Numbered from the stretch's first letter, positions 19,015 to 45,393 are shown. The stretch: 64,000 bases of DNA from Dehalococcoidia bacterium (GCA_965243495.1 CBDEUZ010000007.1:1511743-1575742); one strand, 5' to 3'. The notes: generated from the letters alone by a model not told the origin. Numbers and translations are program-made.

Positions 19015-19103
19015 TCCTGTCCGTCATTCCCGCGAAAGCGGGAATCCAGAACCCAAAGAACAAACCAACCAGAACAGAGCAGACAAGGAAAGAGAGGAAA
19101 GAA

Positions 19104-19985
19104 ATGGCCGACTACGAAAACATCCTGTATGACAAGCAGCGCAAAGGCGTGCTTATCACACTGAACCGCCCCGAGGCCCTGAACGCGCTCAGCCGCGACC
19201 TCGAAGACGAACTGCACGTTGCGCTTGACGAGGCGGAGGCGGATCCCGAGGTTCGCTACATCATCCTCACCGGTGCCGGCCGTGCGTTCTCGGCGGGCTA
19301 CGATATCGCCGGTGGCCGCGCCCCAACCGTCTGGCCGTACGGTCTGCCGGAGGGCACGAACATCGCCCAGATGCTGGATGACTGGCGCACGCGTGACAAG
19401 CCGGATCGATTCATGCACCTCTGGGAGCTCACCAAGCCCGTCATCGCCGCCGTTAACGGCTGGTGCATGGGTGGAGGCTCCTGGTACGCGCTCTTCTCGC
19501 ACATGACGTATGCGTCCGATACCGCCGTGTTCTCGCAGCCTGAGGTCCGCATGATCTCCAACACCAGCTTCATTTGGACGCTCAACGCGGGCTACAAGCA
19601 CGCACTGCGTTACAGCCTCACCGGCGACCACATCGACGCTGAAGAAGCGCTCCGCATTGGCATCATCAACCAAATCATCCCGCAGGACGACCTTATTGAA
19701 GAGTGCTTCAAGATTGGCGAGCGCATCGCTCTGGTGTCCCCGGAGACTGTGAAGATCAACCTGTACGTCGCGACCATGGGCCTCGAGATGATGGGCCTGC
19801 GCAACGCGCTCATTCTCAACGGCGAACTCTCCGCCTTCGCCCACGCCTCCAAGCGTGAGGACGTAATGCGGCCATTGGAACAGGCACGTGAAGAGGGCGG
19901 AATGCGCGGCTTCCTCCAGCAGCGCGACGGTCCCTTCCAACCGGAGCCCTTCGGTCCCCGCTCAGCCGCCGCCCGCGGCAACTAA
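19104..19985 (+). CDS. enoyl-CoA hydratase/isomerase family protein, paralog 3
   Basis: MADYENILYDKQRKGVLITLNRPEALNALS…; a tandem paralog. Confidence 0.8.
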   Translation: MADYENILYDKQRKGVLITLNRPEALNALSRDLEDELHVALDEAEADPEVRYIILTGAGRAFSAGYDIAGGRAPTVWPYGLPEGTNIAQMLDDWRTRDKPDRFMHLWELTKPVIAAVNGWCMGGGSWYALFSHMTYASDTAVFSQPEVRMISNTSFIWTLNAGYKHALRYSLTGDHIDAEEALRIGIINQIIPQDDLIEECFKIGERIALVSPETVKINLYVATMGLEMMGLRNALILNGELSAFAHASKREDVMRPLEQAREEGGMRGFLQQRDGPFQPEPFGPRSAAARGN

Positions 19986-20057
19986 CGTTTAGCCGCCAAT
20001 CGAAGGAAAGGCATGGGCGGCCAACAGGCCGCCCATGCCGTCTTTTCCGCCCTCCAA

Positions 20058-20375
20058 CTCGTCATTCCCGCGAAAGCGGGAATCCAGTACGACGCACAGC
20101 GCCGTCTCCTCCCCGTTCGCCCTGAGCCTGTCGAAGGGGGCTCCCGAACGGGGACCTGACCCAACTCGTCATTCCCGCGAAAGCGGGAATCCAGTATGGC
20201 GCACAGCGCCGTCTCCTCCCCGTTCGCCCTGAGCCTGTCGAAGGGGGCTCCCGAACCGGGACCTGGCCCACCTCGTCATTCCCGCGAAAGCGGGAATCCA
20301 GTACGACGCACAGCGCCGTCTCCCCCCGTTCGCCCTGAGCGTAGCGAAGAATCCAAAGCCGCATTGCGCAAATCA
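20058..20375. repeat. 3x tandem composite REP-like array (unit ~100 bp: family A + linker + family B hairpin)
   Basis: ctcgtcattcccgcgaaagcgggaatccagtacgacgcacagcgccgtctcc…ccccgttcgccctgagcctgtcgaagggggctcccgaacgggga repeated three times at ~20058, 20163 and 20269. Confidence 0.9.
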
Positions 20376-20388
20376 AATGCGGTAACGT

Positions 20389-21060
20389 ATGGCCATGAAC
20401 CTCCAAATTGACCCCAAAACCACCGCCCTCATCGTCGTCGACATGCAGAACGACTTCTGCCATGCGGACGGTTTCTACGCAAAGGCCGCAGGGCGAATTG
20501 AACCCCTTGGCCTTGACCCCCAACTCGTAACCGACGCCATCCCGCCCATGTCGGCACTGCTTGAGGCCGCCCGCGCATCAAGCCTCTTCATCGTCCACAC
20601 CCGCATCGAGCGAGACGATTCCCCCGACGCCGTCCACCTCATCCACAATGTCGTCGCCCAGACCTTCGGTGCTGTAGCCGACGCCCCCGGCGGCCCAGCC
20701 CTCACGCCCGGCACGTGGGGCGCGGACATCCACGACGCTCTCGCCCCACAGGACGGCGAATACGTCGTAACAAAGCGCAGCTTCTCCGCCTTCTTTGGCA
20801 CCGACCTTGAGACCGCCCTCCGCCGCCGCGGCATCCGTACCGTCATCCTCGCTGGCACAATCACCTATGCCTGTGTCCTCCACACCGCCTTCGATGCCAA
20901 CGTCCGCGATCTGGATGTCATCGTGGTCTCGGATGGCACAGCCTCATGGGCGCCCGACCTCCAGGCCCCAACCCTCCGTATCGTCGACCTCATCCTCGGC
21001 GGCACTGCAGCCACCGGAGAAATCATCGAAGCCCTCGCCCTCGCCACTCGCGAGAAATAA
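20389..21060 (+). CDS. isochorismatase-family cysteine hydrolase
   Basis: …ALIVVDMQNDFCHADG… together with the family's catalytic K and C positions. Confidence 0.7.
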   Translation: MAMNLQIDPKTTALIVVDMQNDFCHADGFYAKAAGRIEPLGLDPQLVTDAIPPMSALLEAARASSLFIVHTRIERDDSPDAVHLIHNVVAQTFGAVADAPGGPALTPGTWGADIHDALAPQDGEYVVTKRSFSAFFGTDLETALRRRGIRTVILAGTITYACVLHTAFDANVRDLDVIVVSDGTASWAPDLQAPTLRIVDLILGGTAATGEIIEALALATREK

Positions 21061-21065
21061 ACTGC

Positions 21066-21150
21066 GCAATCTCCCCGTTCACCCTGACACTGTCGAAAGT
21101 CCCCGTTCGCCCTGAGCGTAGTCGAAGGGGGTTCCCGAACGGAGAAACCT
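21066..21150. repeat. family-B REP-like elements (1.5 copies) at the left island border
   Basis: ccccgttcaccctgacactgtcgaaag + ccccgttcgccctgagcgtagtcgaagggggttcccgaacgg. Confidence 0.8.
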
Positions 21151-22761
21151 TCCCCCACTTACGCCAACGACATTCATAACAGGCCCGCTGAGAGCCATTT
21201 CCGTGGAATCGACGGGGCCGATGGGGCTATCGTCGGGCATCGGAATCGTGTAGGCAATGCTGGCTTTCCCGGGACTGATTCGGATTTCTTTGACGAACGA
21301 CCGGATGAAAGCCTTGGTCTCGGTCAACTCGCTGGTCTTGAGGAATTCACCCATTTCTCTCGCGTGGGCTGCGATTGTTTCGACCTTATCCAGGATCACC
21401 CGTCGCTCTGCAAGGGCGGTTCGGGCTTCCTCGGCTGCTATTTCCAGTTGCGCCTTCCGTTCTCGGTGTGTCGCGATGCGTTCGGACGCGTCCGACATCT
21501 CAATGGTCGCCGTTTCGATGGCCTCCAAGATCCGGTCCAATCTCTGCTTCAGGTCCGCGAGCTCGCTTTCGATGGTCGCAAGACGCTCGCGCTCCTCTCT
21601 CGCCATGCCGTCCATCTCCTCATCCAGCAACCGCACCAATCCCCGCACGTTCTTCTCGCTCAGGATGTTCTCGCGGATCTGGTCGATGATGAGGCGTTCG
21701 AAGCGCTTTGAGTTCAGGCGTGGGCAATCGCAGGTCCCGCTGCCCCGCTTGAGGAGCGATTGGCACACGTAATACGTATACCGACCGCCCTTGGCTTCAG
21801 AGGCCGATAGCGGCCTGCCGCAGTTGTCGCACGTGACAAGGCCACTGAGCACGTAAGGGCTGGAGGCTCGCATCGGGTGAATCACTTTCGGTGAGCGCGA
21901 CCCAAGGAGTTTGTTGACGCGCCGATACTCCTTAGCAGTCACGATTGCAGGGAATGCCCCCTCAACCCGGACGGGCGGCGCGCCGTCCTTGGCCGTGATA
22001 CCCCAGACCAGCGTGCCCGTATGGACTTCATTCGTCAGGATCACGTGGATTGTGTTCTTGGGCCACGTCTTGCCCCTCGGCGATGGGATACCCTCACTGT
22101 TGAGTGTCTTGGCAATCTCCATCGTTCCACGCCCCTTGAGCGCCATGTCGAAGATGCGGCGAACGATGGGCGCGGCGGACTCATCGAGTTCGAGCTTCGG
22201 CCTCTTCTTTGCGCCGTCCTGCACCAAAACGCGCCGGTAGCCGAATGGTGCATGAGGGCTCACCCAGAAGCCGCGTGACGCCGCCTCGCGCATCCCGCGC
22301 GTCACTTCCTGGGCGAGATTCTCCGAGTAGAACTCATCGACGCTCTCGATGATGGCCTCCATGAGCTTGCCGGTCGGAGTGTCGTCGGCGTGCTCTGTGA
22401 TGGAGACGACCCTGATGCCTCGCCTGCGCAGCATTGCCTTGAATGCGACGGCGTGTTCGCGCTTCCGGGTGAATCGCGAGAACTTCCAGACAAGGATTTC
22501 CTTGAACGGCGCGTTCGGCGAGCTCGCCTCGTCGAGCATCTTGCGGAACTGGGGCCGATCCGCGATGCGCCCACTCTCCGCCTCATCGATGTACTGCCGT
22601 GCGACGATATAGCCGTTCTTGTCGGCATAGTCCCGCAGTGCCCTCAACTGCGCCGCGACGGACAAGTCTACATCCTGCCGGTCACTGGAGACGCGGGCAT
22701 AGAGGGCGGCGGTCGGCAGTTGTTCCTGTTGTTGGGATTCCTTCTTCTGCTTGCCTTTCAT
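21079..22761 (-). CDS. large serine recombinase (resolvase N-domain + recombinase domain + Zn ribbon + coiled coil)
   Basis: N-terminal resolvase catalytic region (AALYARVSSDRQ…), a Cys4 zinc ribbon (CDNCGRPL…C…C), and coiled-coil-like C-terminal helices. The C-terminal tail runs into a family-B repeat. Confidence 0.8.
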   Translation of the reverse strand: MKGKQKKESQQQEQLPTAALYARVSSDRQDVDLSVAAQLRALRDYADKNGYIVARQYIDEAESGRIADRPQFRKMLDEASSPNAPFKEILVWKFSRFTRKREHAVAFKAMLRRRGIRVVSITEHADDTPTGKLMEAIIESVDEFYSENLAQEVTRGMREAASRGFWVSPHAPFGYRRVLVQDGAKKRPKLELDESAAPIVRRIFDMALKGRGTMEIAKTLNSEGIPSPRGKTWPKNTIHVILTNEVHTGTLVWGITAKDGAPPVRVEGAFPAIVTAKEYRRVNKLLGSRSPKVIHPMRASSPYVLSGLVTCDNCGRPLSASEAKGGRYTYYVCQSLLKRGSGTCDCPRLNSKRFERLIIDQIRENILSEKNVRGLVRLLDEEMDGMAREERERLATIESELADLKQRLDRILEAIETATIEMSDASERIATHRERKAQLEIAAEEARTALAERRVILDKVETIAAHAREMGEFLKTSELTETKAFIRSFVKEIRISPGKASIAYTIPMPDDSPIGPVDSTEMALSGPVMNVVGVSGGRFLRSGTPFDYAQGERGLSTVSG

Positions 22762-22969
22762 GGGGGTTCTCCTTCTGTTGAAATTGCTCGGACAGTACTC
22801 GTCCGATACTTGTCATAACCATACGAGAGCAGTCAAGGGGGTTGGTGACACATGAGAGTGAGGATCCAAAGGGGCAATCGCGGCTACTGGCCCCTAGAGA
22901 TTTTGAGATAAGGTGGCTGTGTCATATCCTGTAGCATGAAGGCGCGAGCAATCCAGTTGCGCACCAAGC

Positions 22970-24550
22970 ATGGCACAGAGGATTATGACAACGTTGACCC
23001 AGAAGAGAATTGGGGAAAAGCGATTCCCTAGCGTTTACACAAAGAACTTCGGCCCCATCGCTGAAGGTTCCGTGGAACTACGGCCATTCACAGTTTTCGT
23101 CGGGCCTAGCAATACTGGCAAATCTTACTTGGCTGTTCTTATTTATGCCCTGCACGAATTCTTCAGCGGGACAAGAACTGAATTCTTTGCCGGCACCCCA
23201 ATGAGAAGGACGCGGAGCTTGCCCTTGCCGGGGTTTGGAGATGATGCCCCAACGCAGAAGCAGATTCAAGAGGTTATCAAGTGGATTGAATCCCTAGATT
23301 CGCCCAGTTCCTTGGGAACGCGGCGGACGGGCGAACTCGACATCCCAGTTGCGGTGGCATCTACAATATGGCCTCCAATCGATGACTTCCTCACGTCGAC
23401 AGCGAGGCTTAGTCTAGCGGTCGAACGTGCACTAGGTGTCTCAGATATGGGTGATCTTGTTCGATATGGGAGCGGGCGGCCTCTGGAACTCAAGATAGAC
23501 CTTGGTGACGGCTCTGACTCGGTAATTGATCAATTTGAATACCAGGCTGAGACCTCCTCGTGGTTGTCTTCTCTCTCTGGAGTCAATTCAGAGCACTCAC
23601 TACCGACCTTGACCTTAAGTCGAGAAGAGGCCATGGCTCTGGGCGGTAATGTTCGGCATCGAGGGCCGCTTAGGCACAGCGATGATTTCCTAGTCGCCAT
23701 GACGCTTCATGAGATTGAAGAATCGATAATCAACAAGTTGGTAGGAGACTTTAGGGAGCCAGCCCACTACTTGCCAGCAGATCGGACAGGCATTATGCAT
23801 GCGCATCTGATTGCTGTAGCTTCTGTGATTCGGTCAGCAACTTACACCGGCCTGCGGGCAGAGCGGACTATGCCACAGTTGTCTGGAGTTATCGGCGACT
23901 TCCTCACGCAACTGGTAACATTGCCAAATCAAGTGCAGCGTGACCCTGCCGTTGCAAGAAGCTTGGCCAAAGATTTAGAAGCCAAGATACTTGACGGTGA
24001 AATTGACATTAATGAATCAATGACCGGCTATCCAGAATTCCGTTACCATCCACAAGGATGGGACAGACCGCTCCCCCTCATGAACACGTCATCAATGGTC
24101 TCTGAATTAGCTCCAGTGGTTCTATACCTTAGGCACGTGGTCGATCCCGGTGAACTCCTCATCATCGAAGAGCCGGAATCTCATCTCCATCCTGCAATGC
24201 AGGTTGAATTCGTACGACAGCTTGCTACCGCTATGACAAAGGGAGTTAAGATTCTCATTACAACCCACAGCGAATGGGTCTTGGAGGAGCTAGCCAATCT
24301 AGTTAGACTCTCGGCGTTGGGTGCGAATGACCGCTCAGCGATTAACCATACCGGACCAGCCTTGGATTCCGAAGATGTGGGGGTCTGGTTATTCGAACCG
24401 AAGAAGCGACCTAAGGGTTCGATCATTCGAGAAATCCAGTTCGATCCAGAACTGGGGGGTTATATCAGCGACTATGAGGACGTTGCTATCGATACGCATA
24501 ACACGTGGGCCCGAATCTCCAACCGCATTGAGGCACTTCAACAGGAATGA
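22970..24550 (+). CDS. ABC-type/AAA_21-like ATPase (defence-associated)
   Basis: Walker A FVGPSNTGKS near the N-terminus and a distal LIIEEPESHLHP (Walker B/D-loop) typical of AAA_15/AAA_21 SMC-like ATPases (the GajA/PtuA/OLD family class). The gene is visibly AT-richer. Confidence 0.65.
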   Translation: MAQRIMTTLTQKRIGEKRFPSVYTKNFGPIAEGSVELRPFTVFVGPSNTGKSYLAVLIYALHEFFSGTRTEFFAGTPMRRTRSLPLPGFGDDAPTQKQIQEVIKWIESLDSPSSLGTRRTGELDIPVAVASTIWPPIDDFLTSTARLSLAVERALGVSDMGDLVRYGSGRPLELKIDLGDGSDSVIDQFEYQAETSSWLSSLSGVNSEHSLPTLTLSREEAMALGGNVRHRGPLRHSDDFLVAMTLHEIEESIINKLVGDFREPAHYLPADRTGIMHAHLIAVASVIRSATYTGLRAERTMPQLSGVIGDFLTQLVTLPNQVQRDPAVARSLAKDLEAKILDGEIDINESMTGYPEFRYHPQGWDRPLPLMNTSSMVSELAPVVLYLRHVVDPGELLIIEEPESHLHPAMQVEFVRQLATAMTKGVKILITTHSEWVLEELANLVRLSALGANDRSAINHTGPALDSEDVGVWLFEPKKRPKGSIIREIQFDPELGGYISDYEDVAIDTHNTWARISNRIEALQQE

Positions 24551-25020
24551 GTCTTGCTTCTGAAACACGAATAGCCGTTAACAGCAGCTGTGTCGTAAAT
24601 AGAATCCAAGAGCAGTCGTGCAGATTGACGAGGCAGAACATTTCCAGTGATTCCCTGACGATCAATCTAAGGAAGTCCGCAAGCCCCGCAGACCCAAACG
24701 TCCCTCATTGCGACTTCATTTTCTTTGGCCGGATCGATGGGAACAGCCGTGAGTGGATCGTCCCTATCGAACTCAAGCGTCGCAGAGTTGACGCCGAAGA
24801 GGCGAGACGGCAACTTCAGGGCGGCGCTGATGTCGCGGATAAGATAACGCCCAAACAAGGGAGCTTTAGTTTCAAAGCTATAGTAGCAGCGCGAAAGTTC
24901 CCACCTAAGTTTAGGCAGGATCTCAGAAAGAGCGGGAACCAAGTTCGGTTCCGTGGGGTTGCATTTGTTGTTGAGACTGTCAGGTGTGGCAGTTCTCTTG
25001 CCGCCACTCTTCTAGAGTGA
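24547..25020 (+). CDS. small protein with PD-(D/E)xK-like nuclease motif, translationally coupled to the upstream ATPase
   Basis: ATGA start/stop overlap with the ATPase. Candidate motif HCDFIFF…(20 aa)…IELK (D…ExK). Confidence 0.4.
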   Translation: MSLASETRIAVNSSCVVNRIQEQSCRLTRQNISSDSLTINLRKSASPADPNVPHCDFIFFGRIDGNSREWIVPIELKRRRVDAEEARRQLQGGADVADKITPKQGSFSFKAIVAARKFPPKFRQDLRKSGNQVRFRGVAFVVETVRCGSSLAATLLE

Positions 25021-25377: not shown

Positions 25378-25791
25378 CTACCGCCCTGCGACCCCTGCCG
25401 GCCCGCGCTTTCCCGGAATCAACTCGATGGGCTTCGGAATCAGCCACTCTGAGCCTGACTTGACTGCGCCGTGGAAGCGGCCGTCTCGGGCCAGCTGCCG
25501 GACGCGACGCACGGAGACACCGAGCTCGATAGCAGCCTGCTTGACGGTGACATTCGCCACGTCATCTGCGGGTGCCTCGTCCTCCAGGTCAAACTCAATG
25601 GGTTCGCCCTCTCTGAGCGTGCTGACCTCGTGGATGAGGAAACCGATGACCTCGCCGTGATCGTCGAGCCGCTTGAGGATGCGCTCGTGGTCTGTCGGCG
25701 TGAAGTAACCCTCGCGAAACGCCCAGAGGACTTCGAGCATGTCGCCTTCGTTGTCGTACCAGACTGAGACCTTTCTGGCCGTCATGTTCAT
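25378..25791 (-). CDS. DUF2283-like domain fused to excisionase/MerR-type HTH (putative antitoxin)
   Basis: N-terminal …VWYDNEGDMLEV… (DUF2283-like) and C-terminal …KQAAIELGVSVRRVRQLARDG… HTH. Confidence 0.5.
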   Translation of the reverse strand: MNMTARKVSVWYDNEGDMLEVLWAFREGYFTPTDHERILKRLDDHGEVIGFLIHEVSTLREGEPIEFDLEDEAPADDVANVTVKQAAIELGVSVRRVRQLARDGRFHGAVKSGSEWLIPKPIELIPGKRGPAGVAGR

Positions 25792-26105
25792 TCCCCCCTG
25801 ATTCTCCGGTCGAGGTAAGCGGTGAGGATGAAGGAGTAGCCGCGCTCCTGCTTCACTACGATGCAGACGTACCGATTCCTGCCGCGCAAGTCCGGGTACA
25901 GGCGATAGTAGAGGCGCACGGCGGGGCCGGATCGCGATGGCGCAATGGCGTCCGGCTCGGCAAGCGTCTCCGCAAACCGGTGTACTTGGAATGCCATTTC
26001 GGGGTGCCGTCGGAGGATATGCCGTAGCCTCTCATCGCTCAGCCTGACCTCATTTCCCCTCTCATCGACAAACCGTCGCGGTCCGTTTCCCTCACTCATT
26101 ACCAT
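25788..26105 (-). CDS. DUF4258-like small protein (putative toxin partner)
   Basis: 105 aa; 4-bp overlap with the downstream DUF2283-HTH gene. The DUF4258/DUF2283 pairing is a recurrent two-gene arrangement. Confidence 0.4.
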   Translation of the reverse strand: MVMSEGNGPRRFVDERGNEVRLSDERLRHILRRHPEMAFQVHRFAETLAEPDAIAPSRSGPAVRLYYRLYPDLRGRNRYVCIVVKQERGYSFILTAYLDRRIRGE

Positions 26106-26541: not shown

Positions 26542-28521
26542 CTATCTGAAGTGTTCAACATTGTGTCTCACCGTCGGTGGCTGGCTGGCGTGTCTCCATG
26601 CGGAGGCGAACGGTCCGCGTTTCGCGAGAATATCGGTCGTTGTGCTCAAGAACGGGGCCCATGAAACCTTCCTCGTCGCAAGTATGAAGTTGGACTCGCT
26701 GGCATCCGACTCGAAGACGAAAAGCACCCGTGGCCATCGTCCTCCGTGATCCTTGCGGGCATAGTCGCTCTTGAAGTACCGGATGTAGGACTGCAGACGT
26801 TCAGTAACTCGCTTGAGAGTTGTGGCGCGGCGCTCGAACTCAAGGAAGTACGTGTGCCACTCACCCCTGAACGCAAGCTGGAATGAGGCATCGGGCATCA
26901 GCACGTGGCTCTTGACGTCGTGGGAGTAGATGATCTGAGAGCGTGCGGTAGGCAGAAGGAAACGGACATCGTAATCGCGGGAGAACTTGGCTTTGGCGGT
27001 CAGTGTGGCAGCGAAGTCTGTGATGCCGGCGTGATGGTCTGGTTGGGCTTCCATCGTGCGGAGAGCAGTGCCGAGGTAGGGGATATTGATCGTTTCGCCA
27101 GCAGGGAAAGGCTCTGAACTCCAGCGATCAAGAGTCTGGCCGACGGCGGCGCGGTCTCGGCGGGAGAGGTAAGTGAGGGTCTTCTCTCTAAGCACGTGGC
27201 CGTATTCCGTGGAGTGAATCAACCCCTGGCTCTTCAGCGACCGTAGTAGTTGATTAACGCGGCGCTTGGTGACACCACCCAGCAGGCCGGCGAGTTGCTC
27301 AGTGGTGGACAGCGGCCAATCCGCGAGGACATCGAGGGCGTCCTTCTCTGCGCGAGGCAGAGTGATTGCCAGAGATGATACAAACTGCTTCTCAGGGGCC
27401 GGCATTGTAGCAACTACCCTCTGATCGTAGATGAGATCGGGAATTGGGAACGCCGGAATGGGGTGGTTCTTGTTGGGATCCCTGATGAATTCGTCCTGCG
27501 TGTCAAGGATGTCGTTGAGGCTGGCGTGCGGAACAATCGTAGAGAACTGCTCCCTCAAGTCGAGGATGCCGCCTAGTTGCCAGACTAGGGCCGACGTGCT
27601 GTTGTTGAGGACCCTGGACTCCGTGGCAACCAAGGTGTCTTCATAGCCGCGGGACAACAGCCGGAGCGCCCTGCGCGTTGCTTGGTCAGAGGGCGTGACA
27701 ATGAGGGTGGTATTCGGCTTCTGGAAGTAGTTCAACCGCCCCAGACTTCTGATGCGATAGCGAAGATTGGCGGCCGACAGCATCGGGCCCTGTCGAACGA
27801 TGCCGAAGGAACGACCATCAGGCATGGTGAGGAGGGCATCGTACGGCCCGCTGCGGTAGTGGTCGAAACGGACCGGCGCCCCGTGGGCATCCGCGATGGC
27901 GACCTTTGCGGCGATGCGGTAGATGACTGCGATGCTATCCAACCGCTCCGCAAGTAGCTGAAACCACTGGCGCGACACGGGCCGGGTGCGCACGAACTCG
28001 CTCAACTTACCGTCGCCGGCAGCCTCGATGATGCCCTCTTGAGTTGGGTACCAACGGACTTGAGGACGCGGACCGAATTGCCTCAGCCGGTGCTGCACCG
28101 ATTCGGCGTAGCCGAACGACTTGAGCGTTCGCAGACGGTCACGCAGCGTGGACTGCGGCACATGTCGCAGCTCGGACAGATCCTCGACGGTGATGAGCGG
28201 CGTTCGACAGAGCATCAGCAGCGTCTGCCGGAGTGGGCGTGACATACCCTCAGGTTGGCGCGGATCGAAGGATGCCGTCGGCTCGGCGAGGACGGCATAC
28301 CTCGCCTCGTCGATCCGCCCGGGATCCTCGCCGAACCTGCTGATGACCGCCTGCGTCACGGCATAGCCGGCGCTGCGGCGGTCCAGGTAACGCCACAGCG
28401 TATGCCGCGAGACATCCAGATGTGCGGCTGTCCGAACACGACCGTGCCTCAGCACGTAGGCCTCCATGTACAGCCGAATGGCTCGCTGTAGCTCCGGGAC
28501 AACGGGATTACTCTTGCCCAA
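26542..28521 (-). CDS. large multi-winged-helix protein with C-terminal replication-relaxation (Replic_Relax)-like region
   Basis: Several wHTH-like segments (…RRVNQLLRSLKSQGLIHSTEYGHVL…; …LSELRHVPQSTLRDRLRTLKSFGY…) and C-terminal …LMPDASFQLAFRGEWHTYFLEFERRATT…, resembling plasmid/ICE replication-relaxation proteins. Confidence 0.4.
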   Translation of the reverse strand: MGKSNPVVPELQRAIRLYMEAYVLRHGRVRTAAHLDVSRHTLWRYLDRRSAGYAVTQAVISRFGEDPGRIDEARYAVLAEPTASFDPRQPEGMSRPLRQTLLMLCRTPLITVEDLSELRHVPQSTLRDRLRTLKSFGYAESVQHRLRQFGPRPQVRWYPTQEGIIEAAGDGKLSEFVRTRPVSRQWFQLLAERLDSIAVIYRIAAKVAIADAHGAPVRFDHYRSGPYDALLTMPDGRSFGIVRQGPMLSAANLRYRIRSLGRLNYFQKPNTTLIVTPSDQATRRALRLLSRGYEDTLVATESRVLNNSTSALVWQLGGILDLREQFSTIVPHASLNDILDTQDEFIRDPNKNHPIPAFPIPDLIYDQRVVATMPAPEKQFVSSLAITLPRAEKDALDVLADWPLSTTEQLAGLLGGVTKRRVNQLLRSLKSQGLIHSTEYGHVLREKTLTYLSRRDRAAVGQTLDRWSSEPFPAGETINIPYLGTALRTMEAQPDHHAGITDFAATLTAKAKFSRDYDVRFLLPTARSQIIYSHDVKSHVLMPDASFQLAFRGEWHTYFLEFERRATTLKRVTERLQSYIRYFKSDYARKDHGGRWPRVLFVFESDASESNFILATRKVSWAPFLSTTTDILAKRGPFASAWRHASQPPTVRHNVEHFR

Positions 28522-28848
28522 CAGGGTCTTGCTTCCTCATCGCTGGATCGTCGTAGGGCGACATTCGCCCCCACAATTCTCCGGATAAAGAGCAAGTTAG
28601 GTAATGGCCTGTAGGCCATTGTCAGAACAAGAGTTTTGTGCTAGGCAGCACGCTTTGTCGTGTGATGGCTACCACCTAGGTGCTCTAGAGAGAGTCCCAC
28701 TGATGGACGAATCTCGCCGGCAAGTTGGTGATCAGATAGGATGCGTAGTCTCTGGGCGCGAAGATTGAAACTGCCTGAAGAGGTCTGGAATCCGCTTTAG
28801 GACTTGCCGTACTATTGGGTTCGCGCTCAACTAACTACGGAGGAACTC

Positions 28849-29223
28849 ATGCCCATGCGCCGCATCTTTGTTAGCTTCGAGTACGATAGGGACAACGATT
28901 TGAAGAACAACTTCTTCAAACAAGCCGAGCAAAACTCTTCGCACCGTGTGGTCAACTCCTCGTTGAATAGGGCGTATGAGACGCAAGAATGGAAGGCGAA
29001 GGCACGGGCTGCGATTAATGGCAGCGACGTTGTGGTCATCCTAGTTGGCCGAGACACGCACAATGCTCCGGGCGTCCTGACTGAGACTGAGATTGCTGGA
29101 CAGTTGCGGAAGCCAATTCTCCAAGTGCTACCGCAGGGAAGAACGTACACTGGAGTGCCTGGTCTGAATGCTCCCATTCCGTGGCGGTGGAAAACAATCA
29201 ATGGCGCTCTTGATGACCTGTAG
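28849..29223 (+). CDS. TIR-like (DUF1863/MTH538-like) domain protein
   Basis: …RIFVSFEYDRDNDL… then …DVVVILVGRDTH… beta-strand pattern of TIR-like flavodoxin-fold proteins. GGAGG RBS 6 nt before the ATG (MPMRRIF). AT-richer region. Confidence 0.5.
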   Translation: MPMRRIFVSFEYDRDNDLKNNFFKQAEQNSSHRVVNSSLNRAYETQEWKAKARAAINGSDVVVILVGRDTHNAPGVLTETEIAGQLRKPILQVLPQGRTYTGVPGLNAPIPWRWKTINGALDDL

Positions 29224-40394: not shown

Positions 40395-40426
40395 AGGACT
40401 CAGTTGGCTGCCCTCTTTGTCACAAT

Positions 40427-40473
40427 TCCACCTCCAAAACGAACGTTCGCAATGAAGCCAATGATCTGCCACC
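40427..40473. repeat. 47-bp direct repeat, copy 1 (tccacctccaaaacgaacgttcgcaatgaagccaatgatctgccacc)
   Basis: Matches 44172..44218 with one mismatch. Confidence 0.9.
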
Positions 40474-40623
40474 CGCACCTTCATTTCTCTTGCCACTTGT
40501 GACGGGCGCACGAATGACCGTCACGTTGTGAGGTCCGGGCTGTCGGACTCGCTGATGCTGAGCCGCGCTGGCCTCCAACCTGTGGGATGGGAGGCACGAG
40601 GGGCAATGCTCCCCAGTACCTAA

Positions 40624-43600
40624 CTAGCTCCCGCTTACCCAGCGCACACCTTCGGGCAGACGAGGCCAAGCGACTAGAGTGCCGTCTGTGGTAATAGCCA
40701 GCGTGTGATTGGTACGGACCACAATGCTCCGGTATTCCCCGTCAGGAGGACTGGTTCTGCGGCCTCGCTCGTTGCCCCAGCACACAACGGTGTTGTCGGT
40801 TGCTACCGCGCAGGTGTGAAACTCGCCCATGCTTACGCTCTGATAGGTTCCAGCAGGTCCGTCGGTCTGGCCGTGCTTGTTGTATCCCCAGCAGGAAATG
40901 GTGTCATCAGTTGTAATGGCGCAGGTGTGGTACTTGCCGGCGCTGACATTCTTGTAGGCGCCAACGGCCGCGCGCGCCTTGCCGTCCTGATTATTGCCCC
41001 AGCAGGCGACGCTGCCATCCGTGGCCACGGCACAGGAGTGGTCGTCACCGGCGCTGATGCTCTGGTACGTCCCTGTAGGCGCGTTTGTCTGGCCCTTCCG
41101 GTTGTCTCCCCAACAGATAATGGCGTCGTCGGTGGCAATGGCGCAGGTGTGTGCCGAGCCAGCGGATAGCGCCTTGTATGTGCCCGTGGGCGCAATGGTG
41201 CGGCCGTTTGCGCTGAGTCCCCAACAGGCAACGGCGTCGTCGGTTCCGATGGCGCAGGTGTGGTCATCGCCGGCCACAATGCTCTGGTACGTACCAGAGG
41301 GAGCGTTGGTTTGACCGTGTCCACCATATCCCCAGCAGGCAATGGTGTCGTCGGTTGCGATGGCGCAGGTATGGTCGTAGCCGGCAGCCAATTGCTTGTA
41401 GGCGCCCGCCGGAGCGTCGGTCTGGTCAAACTCGTCATATCCCCAGCAGGAAATTGTGCCGTCACTGGCGATGGCGCAGGCATGTTCATAGCCCAGTACA
41501 GCGGATTCGAACGTGCCGGAGGGCGTGTCGGAGCGGGCGTCAATATTCCATCCCCAGCACTTGACCGTGCCGTCTGTCGCAATGCCGCACGTGTAATTGC
41601 TAGCAAGAGCCGTGGCCTTGAAGGCGCCCGACGGTGATTCGGCTTGACCGTCGGCGTTAGTCCCCCAGCAGGAAACTGAGTCGTCGGTTGCGATGGCACA
41701 GGTGTGATTGCGTCTCGCGACGATACTTTTGTAGGTTCCCCCAGGCGCATTGGTCTTGCCACTGCCGCTATCACCCCAGCAGGCAATGGTGCCGTCGGTG
41801 GCGATGGCGCAGGTGTGGTATTCGCCCGCGCTTATGCTCACGTAGGAGCCCGCAGGCGCTCGGGTTTGCCCCCTGTTGTTCATTCCCCGGCAGATTACCG
41901 AATCATCACTCTTTATAGCGCAGGTGTGAACGAAGCCGGCCGTGACCGCCTTGTACGTGCCGGACGGGAAATTGCCCTCCCCGTGATCATTCAGACCCCA
42001 GCAGGAGATGGTGTCGTCAGTCTTGATGGTGCAGGTGTGCTCCCAACCGATGGCCATCGACTTGTAAGTACCGGCGGGCGATGCGTTCTGGGCGAAGCTG
42101 TGGTATCCCCAGCAGGCAATCGTGTCGTCAACAGCGATGGCGCAAGAGTGTCGGGAGTGCGATGCGATGGCCTTGAATGTACCTGCCGGAGGAGTGGCCT
42201 GATTGAATGTGTTCCAGCCCCAACAATCGATTGAACCGTCTGTGGCGATGGCACATGTGTGAACGCTTCCTGAAGCCAACGCTTTGTAAGCACCTGCAGG
42301 CGGGTCGATTTGACCTCGATGGCCTTCTCCCCAGCAATGGAGCGATCCGTCGGTGGCGATACCACACATGTGGAAGGAACCGCCGCTCAACTCCACGAAA
42401 GTGCGTTCCGGGTTAGTGGATGCCAGTAATGTCGCGGGATCGGATAGCGCTACCACTGTCCCTGTTGCGCTGCTGGTCAGGCTCTCCGAATACCCGTCGT
42501 CGTCGGTAAAGCTGACCTGCACCTTAATGGTCTTCCCCTGGTCATCGTCGGTGAGAGTGTAGGTCTGCCCGGTGGCCCCGGGGGTGTTCGTGTCCGAGCC
42601 GCTATCACTGCGTATCCACTGGTAGGTGTACTGCGGGTTTGAGAGTCCGTTTCCATCGCTGATTCCTGAGGTGTCGGCAGTCAGCGTCTCACCCACCTGC
42701 TCTGTGCCCGTGATGGTTGGCAGGCCGGTGGGTGTTTCGTTAGTCGGAGTGGGATCCGCCGGCGTGGTGAACCTCGCTGCTGGTTGGGACCACTCGCTCA
42801 GCCCGTGGGCGTTACGGGCCTTAACCCGGTACCGGTACGTGGTCTCCGGCGCCACGGTCGTGTCCGTGTAACTGGTGACTGAACTGCCCGTGTCGTCCTC
42901 GATGACATCGAATACGCCGGAGTCGTGGATTGCAGGGTTCCGCCTGAGCACCTGGTACCCCGTGATGCTGGTGTCCCCGGGGTCATCCCACGCAATTGTG
43001 ACTGAGTTGTGTGCGACGGATTCAATGGTGGGACGTGACGGCGTCGCCGGTGGCGCAATCGTCGGGGCTACTGTGGCGGGATTGTTCTGAGGAGTCTCTC
43101 CGCCACTACTCCCCCCTACGGCAGAGGTTACTGATGCAGTGGCAGCGCTGGTCAGCGACTCCGAATACCCTCCCTTATCGACAAAGTCCACGCGTACCTT
43201 GATGGTGTTGCCCTCGTCGGCTGCCACAAGGGTGTAGCCGGAGTCCGTGGCGCCCGTGATAACGGTGTCTGTGCCTCCGCTGCTTGAGATCCACTGAAAG
43301 CGGAACTGTACTCGGTCCAGCCCGTTGCCGTCCGTAATGGCCCCCGTATCTGCCGTCAGGGTTTCTCCGACTTCCGGCGTGCCGCTAATGACGGGAGTGC
43401 CGGTGGCCGCCACGTTGTCAGGTCTGGGCTGTCGGCCTTGCTCAAACTGAGTCGTGGAGGCCATTTGATAGAAGGCAGACCAGTCCGAGGTCCCGTGAGC
43501 ATTCCTTGCCCGAACCTGGAACCAGAGCGTGGCGGTTGGATCGAGTTCGCTGATTATGGCTCCCGCCCCGTAGAAGGCGATCTCAACGCCGTCTCCCGGC

Positions 43601-43983
43601 AAGTCAGTCCATTGGCCATTTCGGTACAACTGGACGTCGTAGGAATCGGCGCCCGTCACATCGTTCCACTGCAGGTCGACGCCCCCTATGAAGACGGCAG
43701 TTCCGGTAGGTTTGTTTGGAGTGTCCGGAGTTGAACCTTGGGCAGACACGGTTAAGGCGCTGGCAAGCAGAGCGATTAGTACCGACAGGAAGACCACCAG
43801 CAGCATGGCCGGATGAGTCGACGGACGGACAATCGGGCTGGCCTGCCCCGATGCTTCCCGGTCCGTCCGTTGCGCCTTTTCTGTTCTCGTATGCATGTCT
43901 TGGTGGTTACTCAGCAGAGACCCGCCCTCAACGTGCGTTCCTGTAGCTGCTCGATTAGCTACGAAACAGTTGTGAAAACACAA
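40624..43983 (-). CDS. secreted/surface protein: signal-anchor + 2 fibronectin-III-like domains + ~17 RCC1-like (CWG) beta-propeller repeats
   Basis: Hydrophobic segment MLLVVFLSVLIALLASALTVSAQG (the true start may be the ATG at 43806 or 43896). Two ~90-aa FN3-like modules. Tandem 37-38-aa repeats of HTCAIATDG(T/S)I(A/S)CWG.N..GQ…P.GTY.S. Confidence 0.6.
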   Translation of the reverse strand: MCFHNCFVANRAATGTHVEGGSLLSNHQDMHTRTEKAQRTDREASGQASPIVRPSTHPAMLLVVFLSVLIALLASALTVSAQGSTPDTPNKPTGTAVFIGGVDLQWNDVTGADSYDVQLYRNGQWTDLPGDGVEIAFYGAGAIISELDPTATLWFQVRARNAHGTSDWSAFYQMASTTQFEQGRQPRPDNVAATGTPVISGTPEVGETLTADTGAITDGNGLDRVQFRFQWISSSGGTDTVITGATDSGYTLVAADEGNTIKVRVDFVDKGGYSESLTSAATASVTSAVGGSSGGETPQNNPATVAPTIAPPATPSRPTIESVAHNSVTIAWDDPGDTSITGYQVLRRNPAIHDSGVFDVIEDDTGSSVTSYTDTTVAPETTYRYRVKARNAHGLSEWSQPAARFTTPADPTPTNETPTGLPTITGTEQVGETLTADTSGISDGNGLSNPQYTYQWIRSDSGSDTNTPGATGQTYTLTDDDQGKTIKVQVSFTDDDGYSESLTSSATGTVVALSDPATLLASTNPERTFVELSGGSFHMCGIATDGSLHCWGEGHRGQIDPPAGAYKALASGSVHTCAIATDGSIDCWGWNTFNQATPPAGTFKAIASHSRHSCAIAVDDTIACWGYHSFAQNASPAGTYKSMAIGWEHTCTIKTDDTISCWGLNDHGEGNFPSGTYKAVTAGFVHTCAIKSDDSVICRGMNNRGQTRAPAGSYVSISAGEYHTCAIATDGTIACWGDSGSGKTNAPGGTYKSIVARRNHTCAIATDDSVSCWGTNADGQAESPSGAFKATALASNYTCGIATDGTVKCWGWNIDARSDTPSGTFESAVLGYEHACAIASDGTISCWGYDEFDQTDAPAGAYKQLAAGYDHTCAIATDDTIACWGYGGHGQTNAPSGTYQSIVAGDDHTCAIGTDDAVACWGLSANGRTIAPTGTYKALSAGSAHTCAIATDDAIICWGDNRKGQTNAPTGTYQSISAGDDHSCAVATDGSVACWGNNQDGKARAAVGAYKNVSAGKYHTCAITTDDTISCWGYNKHGQTDGPAGTYQSVSMGEFHTCAVATDNTVVCWGNERGRRTSPPDGEYRSIVVRTNHTLAITTDGTLVAWPRLPEGVRWVSGS

Positions 43984-44171
43984 TTGTAAGGATTTGGTGT
44001 GAGTACATCGTTAAATCAGCGGCCTTTTGCGCAGAAATTACTGTGATTTTGGCGTAAAGAGGGACATATGCCGCCGATTATCCAGAAATCCCTCAACCAG
44101 GCGTCGATTAGAGTGGCGGGAAATGAAGAGGCTCGCGGGGTCAATCGAGTGCGCCTGACCGCCCCCTACAA

Positions 44172-44218
44172 CTCCACCTCCAAAACGAATGTTCGCAATG
44201 AAGCCAATGATCTGCCAC
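44172..44218. repeat. 47-bp direct repeat, copy 2
   Basis: tccacctccaaaacgaatgttcgcaatgaagccaatgatctgccacc; it directly abuts a family-A REP element. Confidence 0.9.
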
Positions 44219-44350
44219 CGTCATTCCCGCGAAAGCGGGAATCCAGTTCGGCGCATAGCGCCGTCTCTGTCATTCCGACTGCACCCCCATGTCATTCCGA
44301 GCGCAGTCGAGGAATCTAAAGACTCCATTGCGCCACCCCCGCCCGTCTTT
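44219..44350. repeat. REP-like cluster (A + C fragment + C)
   Basis: gtcattcccgcgaaagcgggaatccag then gtcattccgagcgcagtcgaggaatctaaag. Confidence 0.85.
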
Positions 44351-44392
44351 GCTACCATCTAGCAGGGGAACACAGGAGAAAGAGAGCCAACG

Positions 44393-45274
44393 ATGCCCAA
44401 CTATGAGACCGTCCTCTATGAAAAGCAGCGCAATGGCGTACTCATCACGCTGAACCGACCCGAAACACTGAACGCCATCAGCCGCCAGTTGGAGCGCGAT
44501 GTCTCCGAGGCGCTAACTGAAGCGGAGAACGACCCCGAGGTCCGCGCCATCGTCCTCACAGGCGCAGGTCGCGCCTTCTCTTCCGGTTACGACATCGGCG
44601 CAGGCCGCGGTGAAACCGTCTGGCCGTATGGACTCCCCGAAGGCACGAGCGTCGCCGCCATCCTCGACGACTGGCGCGACCGCTCCCGAGATGAGACGGC
44701 CAAGCTGCTTCAGATCTGGGAACTCACCAAGCCTGTCATTGCCGCCGTCAACGGCTGGTGCATGGGTGGCGGCTCCTGGTATGCCCTCGCCTCCCACATG
44801 ACATACGCTGCCGAGGAAGCCGTCTTCGCCCAGCCCGAGATCCGCATGATCTCCAACACCAACTTCTTCTGGACCCTCAACGCCGGCTACAAGCACGCCA
44901 TTCGCTACGGCCTCACAGGCGACCACATCGATGCACAAGAAGCGCTACGCATCGGCCTGGTTAACGGCGTCGTCCCCGGTGATGATTTGCTTGAACACTG
45001 CTTCCGCGTCGTCGAGCGCATCGCCCTCGTCTCGCCTGAGACGGTCAAGATCAACCTCTACGTCGCCACCATGGGCCTCGAGATGATGGGACTCCGCAAC
45101 GCGCTCGTCCTCAACGATGAGCTGTCAGCCCACGCCCAGAGCTCGCAACGCGAAGACTTCAAGCGCGAAATGATGGACGCCCAGAAAGAGGGCGGCCTCC
45201 GCGCATTCCTCCAAGTGCGTGACGGCCCCTTCCAGCCGGAACCCTTCGGCCCCCGCTCCCGCGTTAGGGAGTAG
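44393..45274 (+). CDS. enoyl-CoA hydratase/isomerase family protein, paralog 4
   Basis: MPNYETVLYEKQRNGVLITLNRPETLNAIS…; closely related to the 17.2-20.0 kb triplet. Confidence 0.8.
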   Translation: MPNYETVLYEKQRNGVLITLNRPETLNAISRQLERDVSEALTEAENDPEVRAIVLTGAGRAFSSGYDIGAGRGETVWPYGLPEGTSVAAILDDWRDRSRDETAKLLQIWELTKPVIAAVNGWCMGGGSWYALASHMTYAAEEAVFAQPEIRMISNTNFFWTLNAGYKHAIRYGLTGDHIDAQEALRIGLVNGVVPGDDLLEHCFRVVERIALVSPETVKINLYVATMGLEMMGLRNALVLNDELSAHAQSSQREDFKREMMDAQKEGGLRAFLQVRDGPFQPEPFGPRSRVRE

Positions 45275-45393
45275 TTGCCATAGAAGCCCTACAATGGTAG
45301 GGCAAGCGGGGGTAGCGAACCCTCTGTCATTCCCGCGAAAGCGGAAATCTAGACTACGATTGGCACGCTAAGCTGGTAAGCAAACCGGAGCGG

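Follow-up and report, generated by a model that had tools for sequence, protein, structure and literature searches.

PD-T4-4 is reportedly an E. coli system that goes back to Vassallo et al. in 2022. It has been listed with a PD-(D/E)xK nuclease (PMC10952713; bioRxiv 10.1101/2025.07.10.664194), and WonAB of V. cholerae consists of an OLD-type ABC ATPase and a 'variant of the PD-(D/E)xK nuclease fold' (PMC12137116). Here, we analyzed a two-gene locus in a 64,000-nt stretch of DNA from a Dehalococcoidia bacterium (GCA_965243495.1 CBDEUZ010000007.1:1511743-1575742; hereafter, the window), in which the gene for an OLD-type ABC ATPase (gene A) is followed by an open reading frame (ORF) for a 157-aa protein (gene B) with the predicted fold of a PD-(D/E)xK nuclease. 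The A/B pair is a widely conserved cassette and a divergent, uncatalogued relative of WonAB and PD-T4-4. The kind of system is not new; the locus fills in a known class and opens no new question.

The two genes and their described relatives

The profile of the gene B family was aligned with those of its described counterparts using hhalign, with nine sequences from Supplementary Table 4 of PMC12137116 serving as the WonB reference. The family matched WonB with a probability of 94.4% (E = 8.5e-8 over 82 columns) and PD-T4-4_B with a probability of 88.3% (E = 2.9e-6 over 78 columns), and in both alignments the [KR]-C-D, (E/D)-L-K and Q motifs, including the catalytic residues, were in register. 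Gene A thus has beside it a co-oriented small restriction endonuclease (REase) that is homologous to WonB at the level of superfamily or clade, that is, remotely. Gene A itself is of OLD type, and its Walker A, R-motif, Walker B and H-loop are all intact (K51, R272, E400/E401 and H433). Of these, K51, R272, E401 and H433 occupy the same motifs as K34, R182, E300 and H333 of WonA, whose mutation kills defence (PMC12137116). The WonB mutation K71A, designed to break nuclease activity, abolishes both defence and toxicity (PMC12137116). K77 of gene B is presumably the equivalent of K71; the V. cholerae sequence lay outside the alignment, and the equivalence is taken from the shared, invariant E-L-K motif.

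Like A/B, WonAB is a two-gene operon of an OLD-type ABC ATPase and a REase-fold protein of ~140-170 aa. The ATPases share the motif set GxxxxGKS, PAxR[ST], EEPE-H-L-x-P and TTHS, and the nucleases share [KR]-C-D on beta2, E-L-K-G on beta3, Q in the next helix and the N-terminal cysteines. The differences are also clear. The product of gene A, at ~520 aa, diverges from WonA in its middle (the WonA sequences used end at ~400 residues, and total lengths are not comparable), while the gene B family has D42 where most WonB proteins have a cysteine (D-G-C), carries an extra conserved cysteine, C147, near its C-terminus and, unlike WonAB, comes mainly from metagenome-assembled genomes (MAGs) of uncultured organisms. 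Peptides characteristic of the clade (QLQAG, EPESHLHP and VGPSNTGKS) do not appear in the examined portion of the hit tables published for WonAB and the novel REases. PD-T4-4 has its architecture and overlapping genes in common with A/B, and PD-T4-4_B shares an R-C-D-F, D-L-K and Q-L core with gene B; however, PD-T4-4_B is ~209 aa long with a C-terminal half unlike gene B, and the match between PD-T4-4_A and gene A is split into two blocks rather than full length. The reference PD-T4-4 pair was that of Vibrio phage 1.202.O, whose A and B proteins match the PADLOC models at 6.4e-185 (full length) and 6.5e-18, respectively. This bona fide PD-T4-4 (NC_048066.1 4187-6218) is flanked by the repressor and integrase genes of a P2-like phage, and its proteins are annotated merely as 'AAA family ATPase' and 'hypothetical protein'.

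Gabija (GajA), OLD, PARIS (AriAB) and Septu/retron PtuAB belong to the same ABC ATPase clade as gene A (AAA_15/AAA_21) and follow the same logic of an ATPase sensor with a nuclease effector, but their nucleases are of TOPRIM or HNH type, fused or separate, whereas gene B encodes a separate PD-(D/E)xK protein. Scans of Pfam, PADLOC and further libraries gave no TOPRIM, HNH or DUF4435 match in either protein; a partner of these types is thus ruled out for gene A, and the partner found has a REase fold. An earlier interpretation of the window made from the sequence alone (the sequence-only reading) had taken HNH, TOPRIM and DUF4435 to be the partners described for such ATPases and, as the small ORF resembled none of them, had suggested an undescribed variant. 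The lack of resemblance was borne out, but WonAB and PD-T4-4 already have REase-fold partners. The argument for novelty was therefore wrong, because partners of this fold have been described for the ATPase class and are remote homologues of gene B.

The ATPase carries Walker A as GPSNTGKS (residues 45-52), a P269-A-D-R272 motif, a degenerate signature near S374-S375, a Walker B/D-loop as IIEEPESHLHP (398-408) and an H-loop as TTHS (431-434), together with a conserved C-terminal extension of ~80 aa. It matched Pfam AAA_15 (9.9e-20) and AAA_21 (6e-14). Its top PADLOC match was PD-T4-4_A (4.9e-35, 119.6 bits, in two partial stretches), followed by PDC-M47A and NsnB, and then by AriA, GajA and Old. 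Weak matches to OLD (6p74) and PtuA structures were obtained in the PDB, where a single-sequence search gave no match. There are >5800 homologues of gene A, and the 119 best non-identical ones listed share 42-50% identity over nearly the full length.

The 157-aa ORF matched no model in PADLOC-DB v2.0.0, Pfam, NCBIfam or PHROGs. Gene B is missed entirely by these libraries and its clade is currently unannotatable; the alignment or model of the family could seed a new hidden Markov model (HMM) for the annotation of such systems. A word-indexed homology search with gene B returned a single relative (P0001, 54% identity), while an exhaustive HMMER scan of 1.84 billion representatives returned 705 clusters at E <= 1e-3 and 289 at E <= 1e-10, counted after clustering at 50% identity. 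Nearly all members are 150-170 aa long, typically ~155-160 aa. In an alignment of 126 members, the catalytic set is 87-99% conserved (D56 in 124, E75 in 125, K77 in 110 and Q89 in 124), as are four cysteines to a similar extent (C15 in 113, C25 in 126, C55 in 119 and C147 in 122). Gene B carries H54-C55-D56 and E75-L-K77. In the H-C-D triplet, which had been singled out earlier, C55 and D56 are kept across the family, but the position of H54 is variable and mostly R.

We modelled gene B with AlphaFold2. A two-sequence alignment gave an unusable model, with a predicted local distance difference test score (pLDDT) of 38, whereas the deep family alignment gave a pLDDT of 97.2 and a predicted template modelling score (pTM) of 0.92. 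In this model, residues 37-40, 57-63, 69-76 and 111-115 are strands and residues 83-100 a helix, and the whole forms an alpha-beta-beta-beta-alpha-beta core. D56 starts beta2, E75-x-K77 ends beta3, and Q89 lies in the next helix; this is the arrangement that defines the PD-(D/E)xK superfamily, with D on beta2 and (D/E)-x-K on beta3 of the core fold. Given this model, the assignment of gene B to a predicted minimal PD-(D/E)xK fold with D56 and E75-x-K77 at its core is solid. The nearest structural matches are DNA endonucleases, namely type II and IIS REases, NucS and Can1/Can2. In a Foldseek search of the PDB and the viral BFVD, nothing was found at E <= 0.001, and there is no close solved structural relative among the structures searched. 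The sequence-only reading had placed the ATPase in the class of OLD, Gabija and Septu and had proposed a minimal restriction-endonuclease fold for its partner, and both proposals agree with the Pfam, PADLOC, PDB and AlphaFold2 results.

Both ORFs, their positions and motifs, their ATGA overlap and the AT-richer segment around them are likewise present as first described. The junction of the two genes reads CAA CAG GAA TGA, with the gene B start, ATG AGT, falling inside it (Table 1), and this overlap indicates translational coupling of A and B. The GC content is 0.52 and 0.51 across 23001-25000, against 0.59-0.61 in both flanks. Promoter and terminator scans at the locus gave nothing above shuffle expectation; one weak sigma-70-like match 5' of gene A (22903-22930) is a consensus match only and within that expectation. 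The public protein collection, of 15 billion proteins, holds a 521-aa version of the gene A product (P0002, NCBI source). The exact 157-aa gene B sequence is absent from it even though this adjoining ATPase is present, and the source record may lack an annotation for gene B or call the gene in another way.

Conservation and distribution of the pair

We also scanned ATPase loci, taking one genome per species, and obtained 80 loci. Most are in MAGs, from Poribacteria, Latescibacterota, Dehalococcoidia/Chloroflexota, Caldilineaceae, Acidobacteriota, and Alpha- and Gammaproteobacteria. The gene B-family HMM matched a same-strand ORF directly 3' of the ATPase in 77 of the 80, and the pairing was seen additionally at one further locus (L001) and at the window locus itself. 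The only exceptions, with no detectable gene B partner, are L019, L041 and L056/L059, the last two being duplicates of one another. The gene for the relative P0001 immediately follows that for a 516-aa AAA_15/21 ATPase, overlaps it by 4 nt and has a genomic context unlike that of the window; in related loci generally, the commonest A/B junctions are -4 and -1 nt. Moreover, A and B co-diverge: their pairwise identities are correlated (Mantel r = 0.66, a value reached by none of 2000 permutations). The small ORF thus has a predicted nuclease fold, as had been proposed from the sequence, and is conserved beside the ATPase, and neither of the two findings named in advance as counting against that view was encountered. 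These results extend the WonAB/PD-T4-4 class into a large clade, with the 705 nuclease clusters and thousands of ATPase homologues, which in the genome scan comes almost entirely from MAGs of uncultured bacteria.

There is no conserved third gene beside the pair, and the nearest neighbours are heterogeneous across loci. Therefore, A/B is a self-contained mobile two-gene cassette. The neighbours elsewhere include transposases (in several genomes), many housekeeping genes, and the defence-related GmrSD, DUF1156/HmaB, HEC-06, NsnA, ThsB and a CBASS 4TM effector. A tblastn search of plasmids with gene B gave no match, and one of phages with gene A gave only the Vibrio PD-T4-4.

A few loci have unusual arrangements. 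In a Poribacteria MAG (L043, 5965-10233), the ATPase-nuclease pair is present in two tandem copies, and in L044 a second ATPase copy lies ~4.5 kb downstream. The longest ATPase-containing ORF of L041 has 1397 aa, but its upstream part is of low complexity and, the genome being high in GC, has the look of a spurious extension, so that a real fusion is no more than a possible reading.

Probable defence function and alternative readings

WonAB requires both genes and the ATPase activity for defence, and WonB is toxic only alongside active WonA, in which case translation is arrested and the genomic DNA is spared (PMC12137116). Based on the conserved pairing and co-divergence of the two genes, their conserved catalytic and ATPase residues, the homology to this system and to PD-T4-4, and the island setting described below, we propose that A/B is probably a defence system of the same type, directed against phages or mobile elements. 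In such a system, the ATPase, probably a head-to-head dimer around two ATP sites, would serve as infection sensor and regulator, and the translationally coupled nuclease would be its toxic effector. By analogy with WonAB, the nuclease would form a complex with the ATPase, being held by or dependent on the C-terminal extensions of the latter, and would become active only when a phage cue coincides with a functional ATPase partner. It would then cleave nucleic acid and stop the infection, with an abortive outcome. As EcPD-T4-4 complexes left all 11 DNA substrates uncut in vitro (bioRxiv 10.1101/2025.07.10.664194) and WonB arrests translation with DNA intact, RNA (tRNA or rRNA) would be the favoured target. 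Taken alone, the RNA target and the abortive details, which are carried over from these relatives, are tentative and fall somewhat short of an even chance.

Several observations weigh against this proposal. The alignment of gene A with WonA and PD-T4-4_A is confined to two blocks, one at Walker A and one from Walker B to the H-loop, and its middle insert is unrelated to either protein. The homology of gene B to WonB and PD-T4-4_B is remote and appears in profile-profile comparison only; gene B matched neither PD-T4-4_B nor PDC-M47B among the PADLOC models at E <= 0.1, and so lies outside PD-T4-4_B as PADLOC defines it. The neighbours of the pair elsewhere are often housekeeping genes, with defence or transposase genes just a minority, and an alignment scan of IMG/VR viral contigs with gene A found distant ATPases only and no close relatives. 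In addition, what is proposed for substrate and abortive mechanism is extrapolated from a single relative that has been characterised, and N40/R42 in the window copy of gene B means that this copy could be attenuated or altered.

OLD and Gabija, two ATPase-nuclease relatives of A/B, act on DNA, and this, like the DNA endonucleases that are nearest to gene B in structure, would fit a system in which the ATPase recognises phage DNA or replication intermediates and licenses the nuclease to cut phage DNA while the host is spared, whether in a restriction-like manner or by sensing DNA ends or structures. However, the fold of gene B cannot decide the substrate, because the PD-(D/E)xK fold supports RNases too. 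Many nuclease-NTPase systems do degrade DNA in vitro (bioRxiv 10.1101/2025.07.10.664194), but the uncut EcPD-T4-4 substrates of the same study and the sparing of genomic DNA by a WonB toxicity that blocks translation (PMC12137116) point the other way. We therefore consider DNA-targeting defence unlikely, although it is the strongest of the alternatives.

A second alternative concerns the window copy, which could be a decaying or catalytically altered relic that has lost its nuclease function within an otherwise functional family. At the end of beta1, this copy has N40/R42 (window 24664-24672) in place of the D-x-D of the family. D40 is found in 110 of the 126 members, D42 in 113 and the two together in 104, and N40 combined with R42 occurs in the window copy only (1/126); the aspartate equivalent to position 40 is moreover found in every sequence of the WonB and PD-T4-4_B alignments. 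The few genomes with A and no B indicate that decay does occur. On the other hand, both ORFs are complete and uninterrupted, the ATGA coupling is kept, and D56, E75, K77, Q89 and all four cysteines are present. Since N40 occurs in nine family members, and the nearest relative, P0001, has D40/R42, a tolerated variant of a sub-lineage is suggested. Judging from these residues, the activity of the window copy may be full, altered or attenuated, and a relic that has lost its nuclease function seems improbable.

Somewhat more doubtful still is the idea that the clade, apparently centred on MAGs of phyla such as Poribacteria, Latescibacterota and Dehalococcoidia, is functionally distinct, with an enlarged ATPase insert and a cue or substrate unlike that of WonAB and PD-T4-4. 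In the same reading, and with the same low probability, catalysis would be gated by a metal or an Fe-S cluster with the near-invariant C15, C25, C55 (beside the catalytic D56) and C147 as its ligands, and the active-site chemistry could have shifted once more in the N40/R42 sub-lineage. The conserved cysteines and the D-x-D variation offer concrete mutational targets.

Finally, it is very improbable that A/B is a toxin-antitoxin-like addiction or stabilisation module that maintains the element rather than conferring immunity, with B as toxin and A as neutraliser: the pair lies at the edge of a recombinase-bearing island beside another toxin pair, behaves as a mobile cassette that is transposase-adjacent in several genomes, and has a counterpart, WonB, that is toxic when over-produced alone (PMC12137116), but simple sequestration is excluded for WonAB because WonB is toxic only with an ATPase-active WonA (PMC12137116), the locus has no labile small antitoxin, and the order of a large ATPase first and a coupled small nuclease second, like the size of A, is that of OLD-class defence pairs.

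The island around the locus

The A/B pair lies at the left edge of a ~23-kb island (roughly 21.1-44.2 kb of the window), which has the usual character of a defence island carried by an integrative element. Its limits were drawn from the palindromic REP-like repeats and the duplicated enoyl-CoA hydratase genes that bracket it, and the apparent boundary zones are 19020-21142 and 44168-45353. The features of the locus and of the island are listed in Table 1.

Table 1. Positions of the A/B locus and of surrounding features, counted from the first nucleotide of the window
Feature	Position	Strand	Basis or remark
Gene A, OLD-type ABC ATPase, 526 aa	22970..24550	+	ORF scan
Gene B, 157-aa PD-(D/E)xK (restriction-endonuclease-fold) nuclease, presumed effector	24547..25020	+	ORF and fold prediction
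ATGA stop/start overlap of genes A and B	24547..24550	+	Junction sequence
Intergenic 208 bp 5' of gene A, presumed promoter region	22762..22969	+	Divergent from recombinase gene
Large serine recombinase, island left edge	21079..22761	-	Pfam Resolvase, Recombinase, Zn_ribbon_recom
Enoyl-CoA hydratase paralogues bracketing the island	19104-19985 and 44393-45274		73-78% DNA identity
Palindromic REP-like (repetitive extragenic palindrome) repeat CGTCATTCCCGCGAAAGCGGGAATCCAG	19020, 20058, 20165, 20272, 44217, 45323
Three tandem 107-nt units	20054-20374
tRNA-Gly	45394
PBECR2 (Barnase/EndoU/RelE-like) nuclease ORF with HTH_17 protein	25378-26105	-	Overlaps downstream HTH_17 protein
659-aa protein with Replic_Relax domain	26542-28521	-	Several winged-helix/helix-turn-helix matches
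ThsB-like TIR protein	28804-29223	+	Pfam ThsB_TIR 4.3e-10
8xMP octameric membrane protein	29268-29720	-	4.5e-37; convergent with ThsB-like gene
RCC1-repeat/fn3 protein, 1119 aa	40624-43983	-	111-nt DNA periodicity
52-nt direct repeat flanking RCC1/fn3 gene (40422-44219)	40422 and 44168		96% identical

Immediately beside A/B, the PBECR2 ORF and its HTH_17 partner are likely to form a toxin-antitoxin-like pair. The Replic_Relax protein possibly has a role in replication or mobilisation of the island. No ThsA was seen near the ThsB-like gene, and a GIY-YIG protein is also among the island genes. At the other end of the island, the RCC1/fn3 gene stands between the copies of its direct repeat as if it were a separate insertion.
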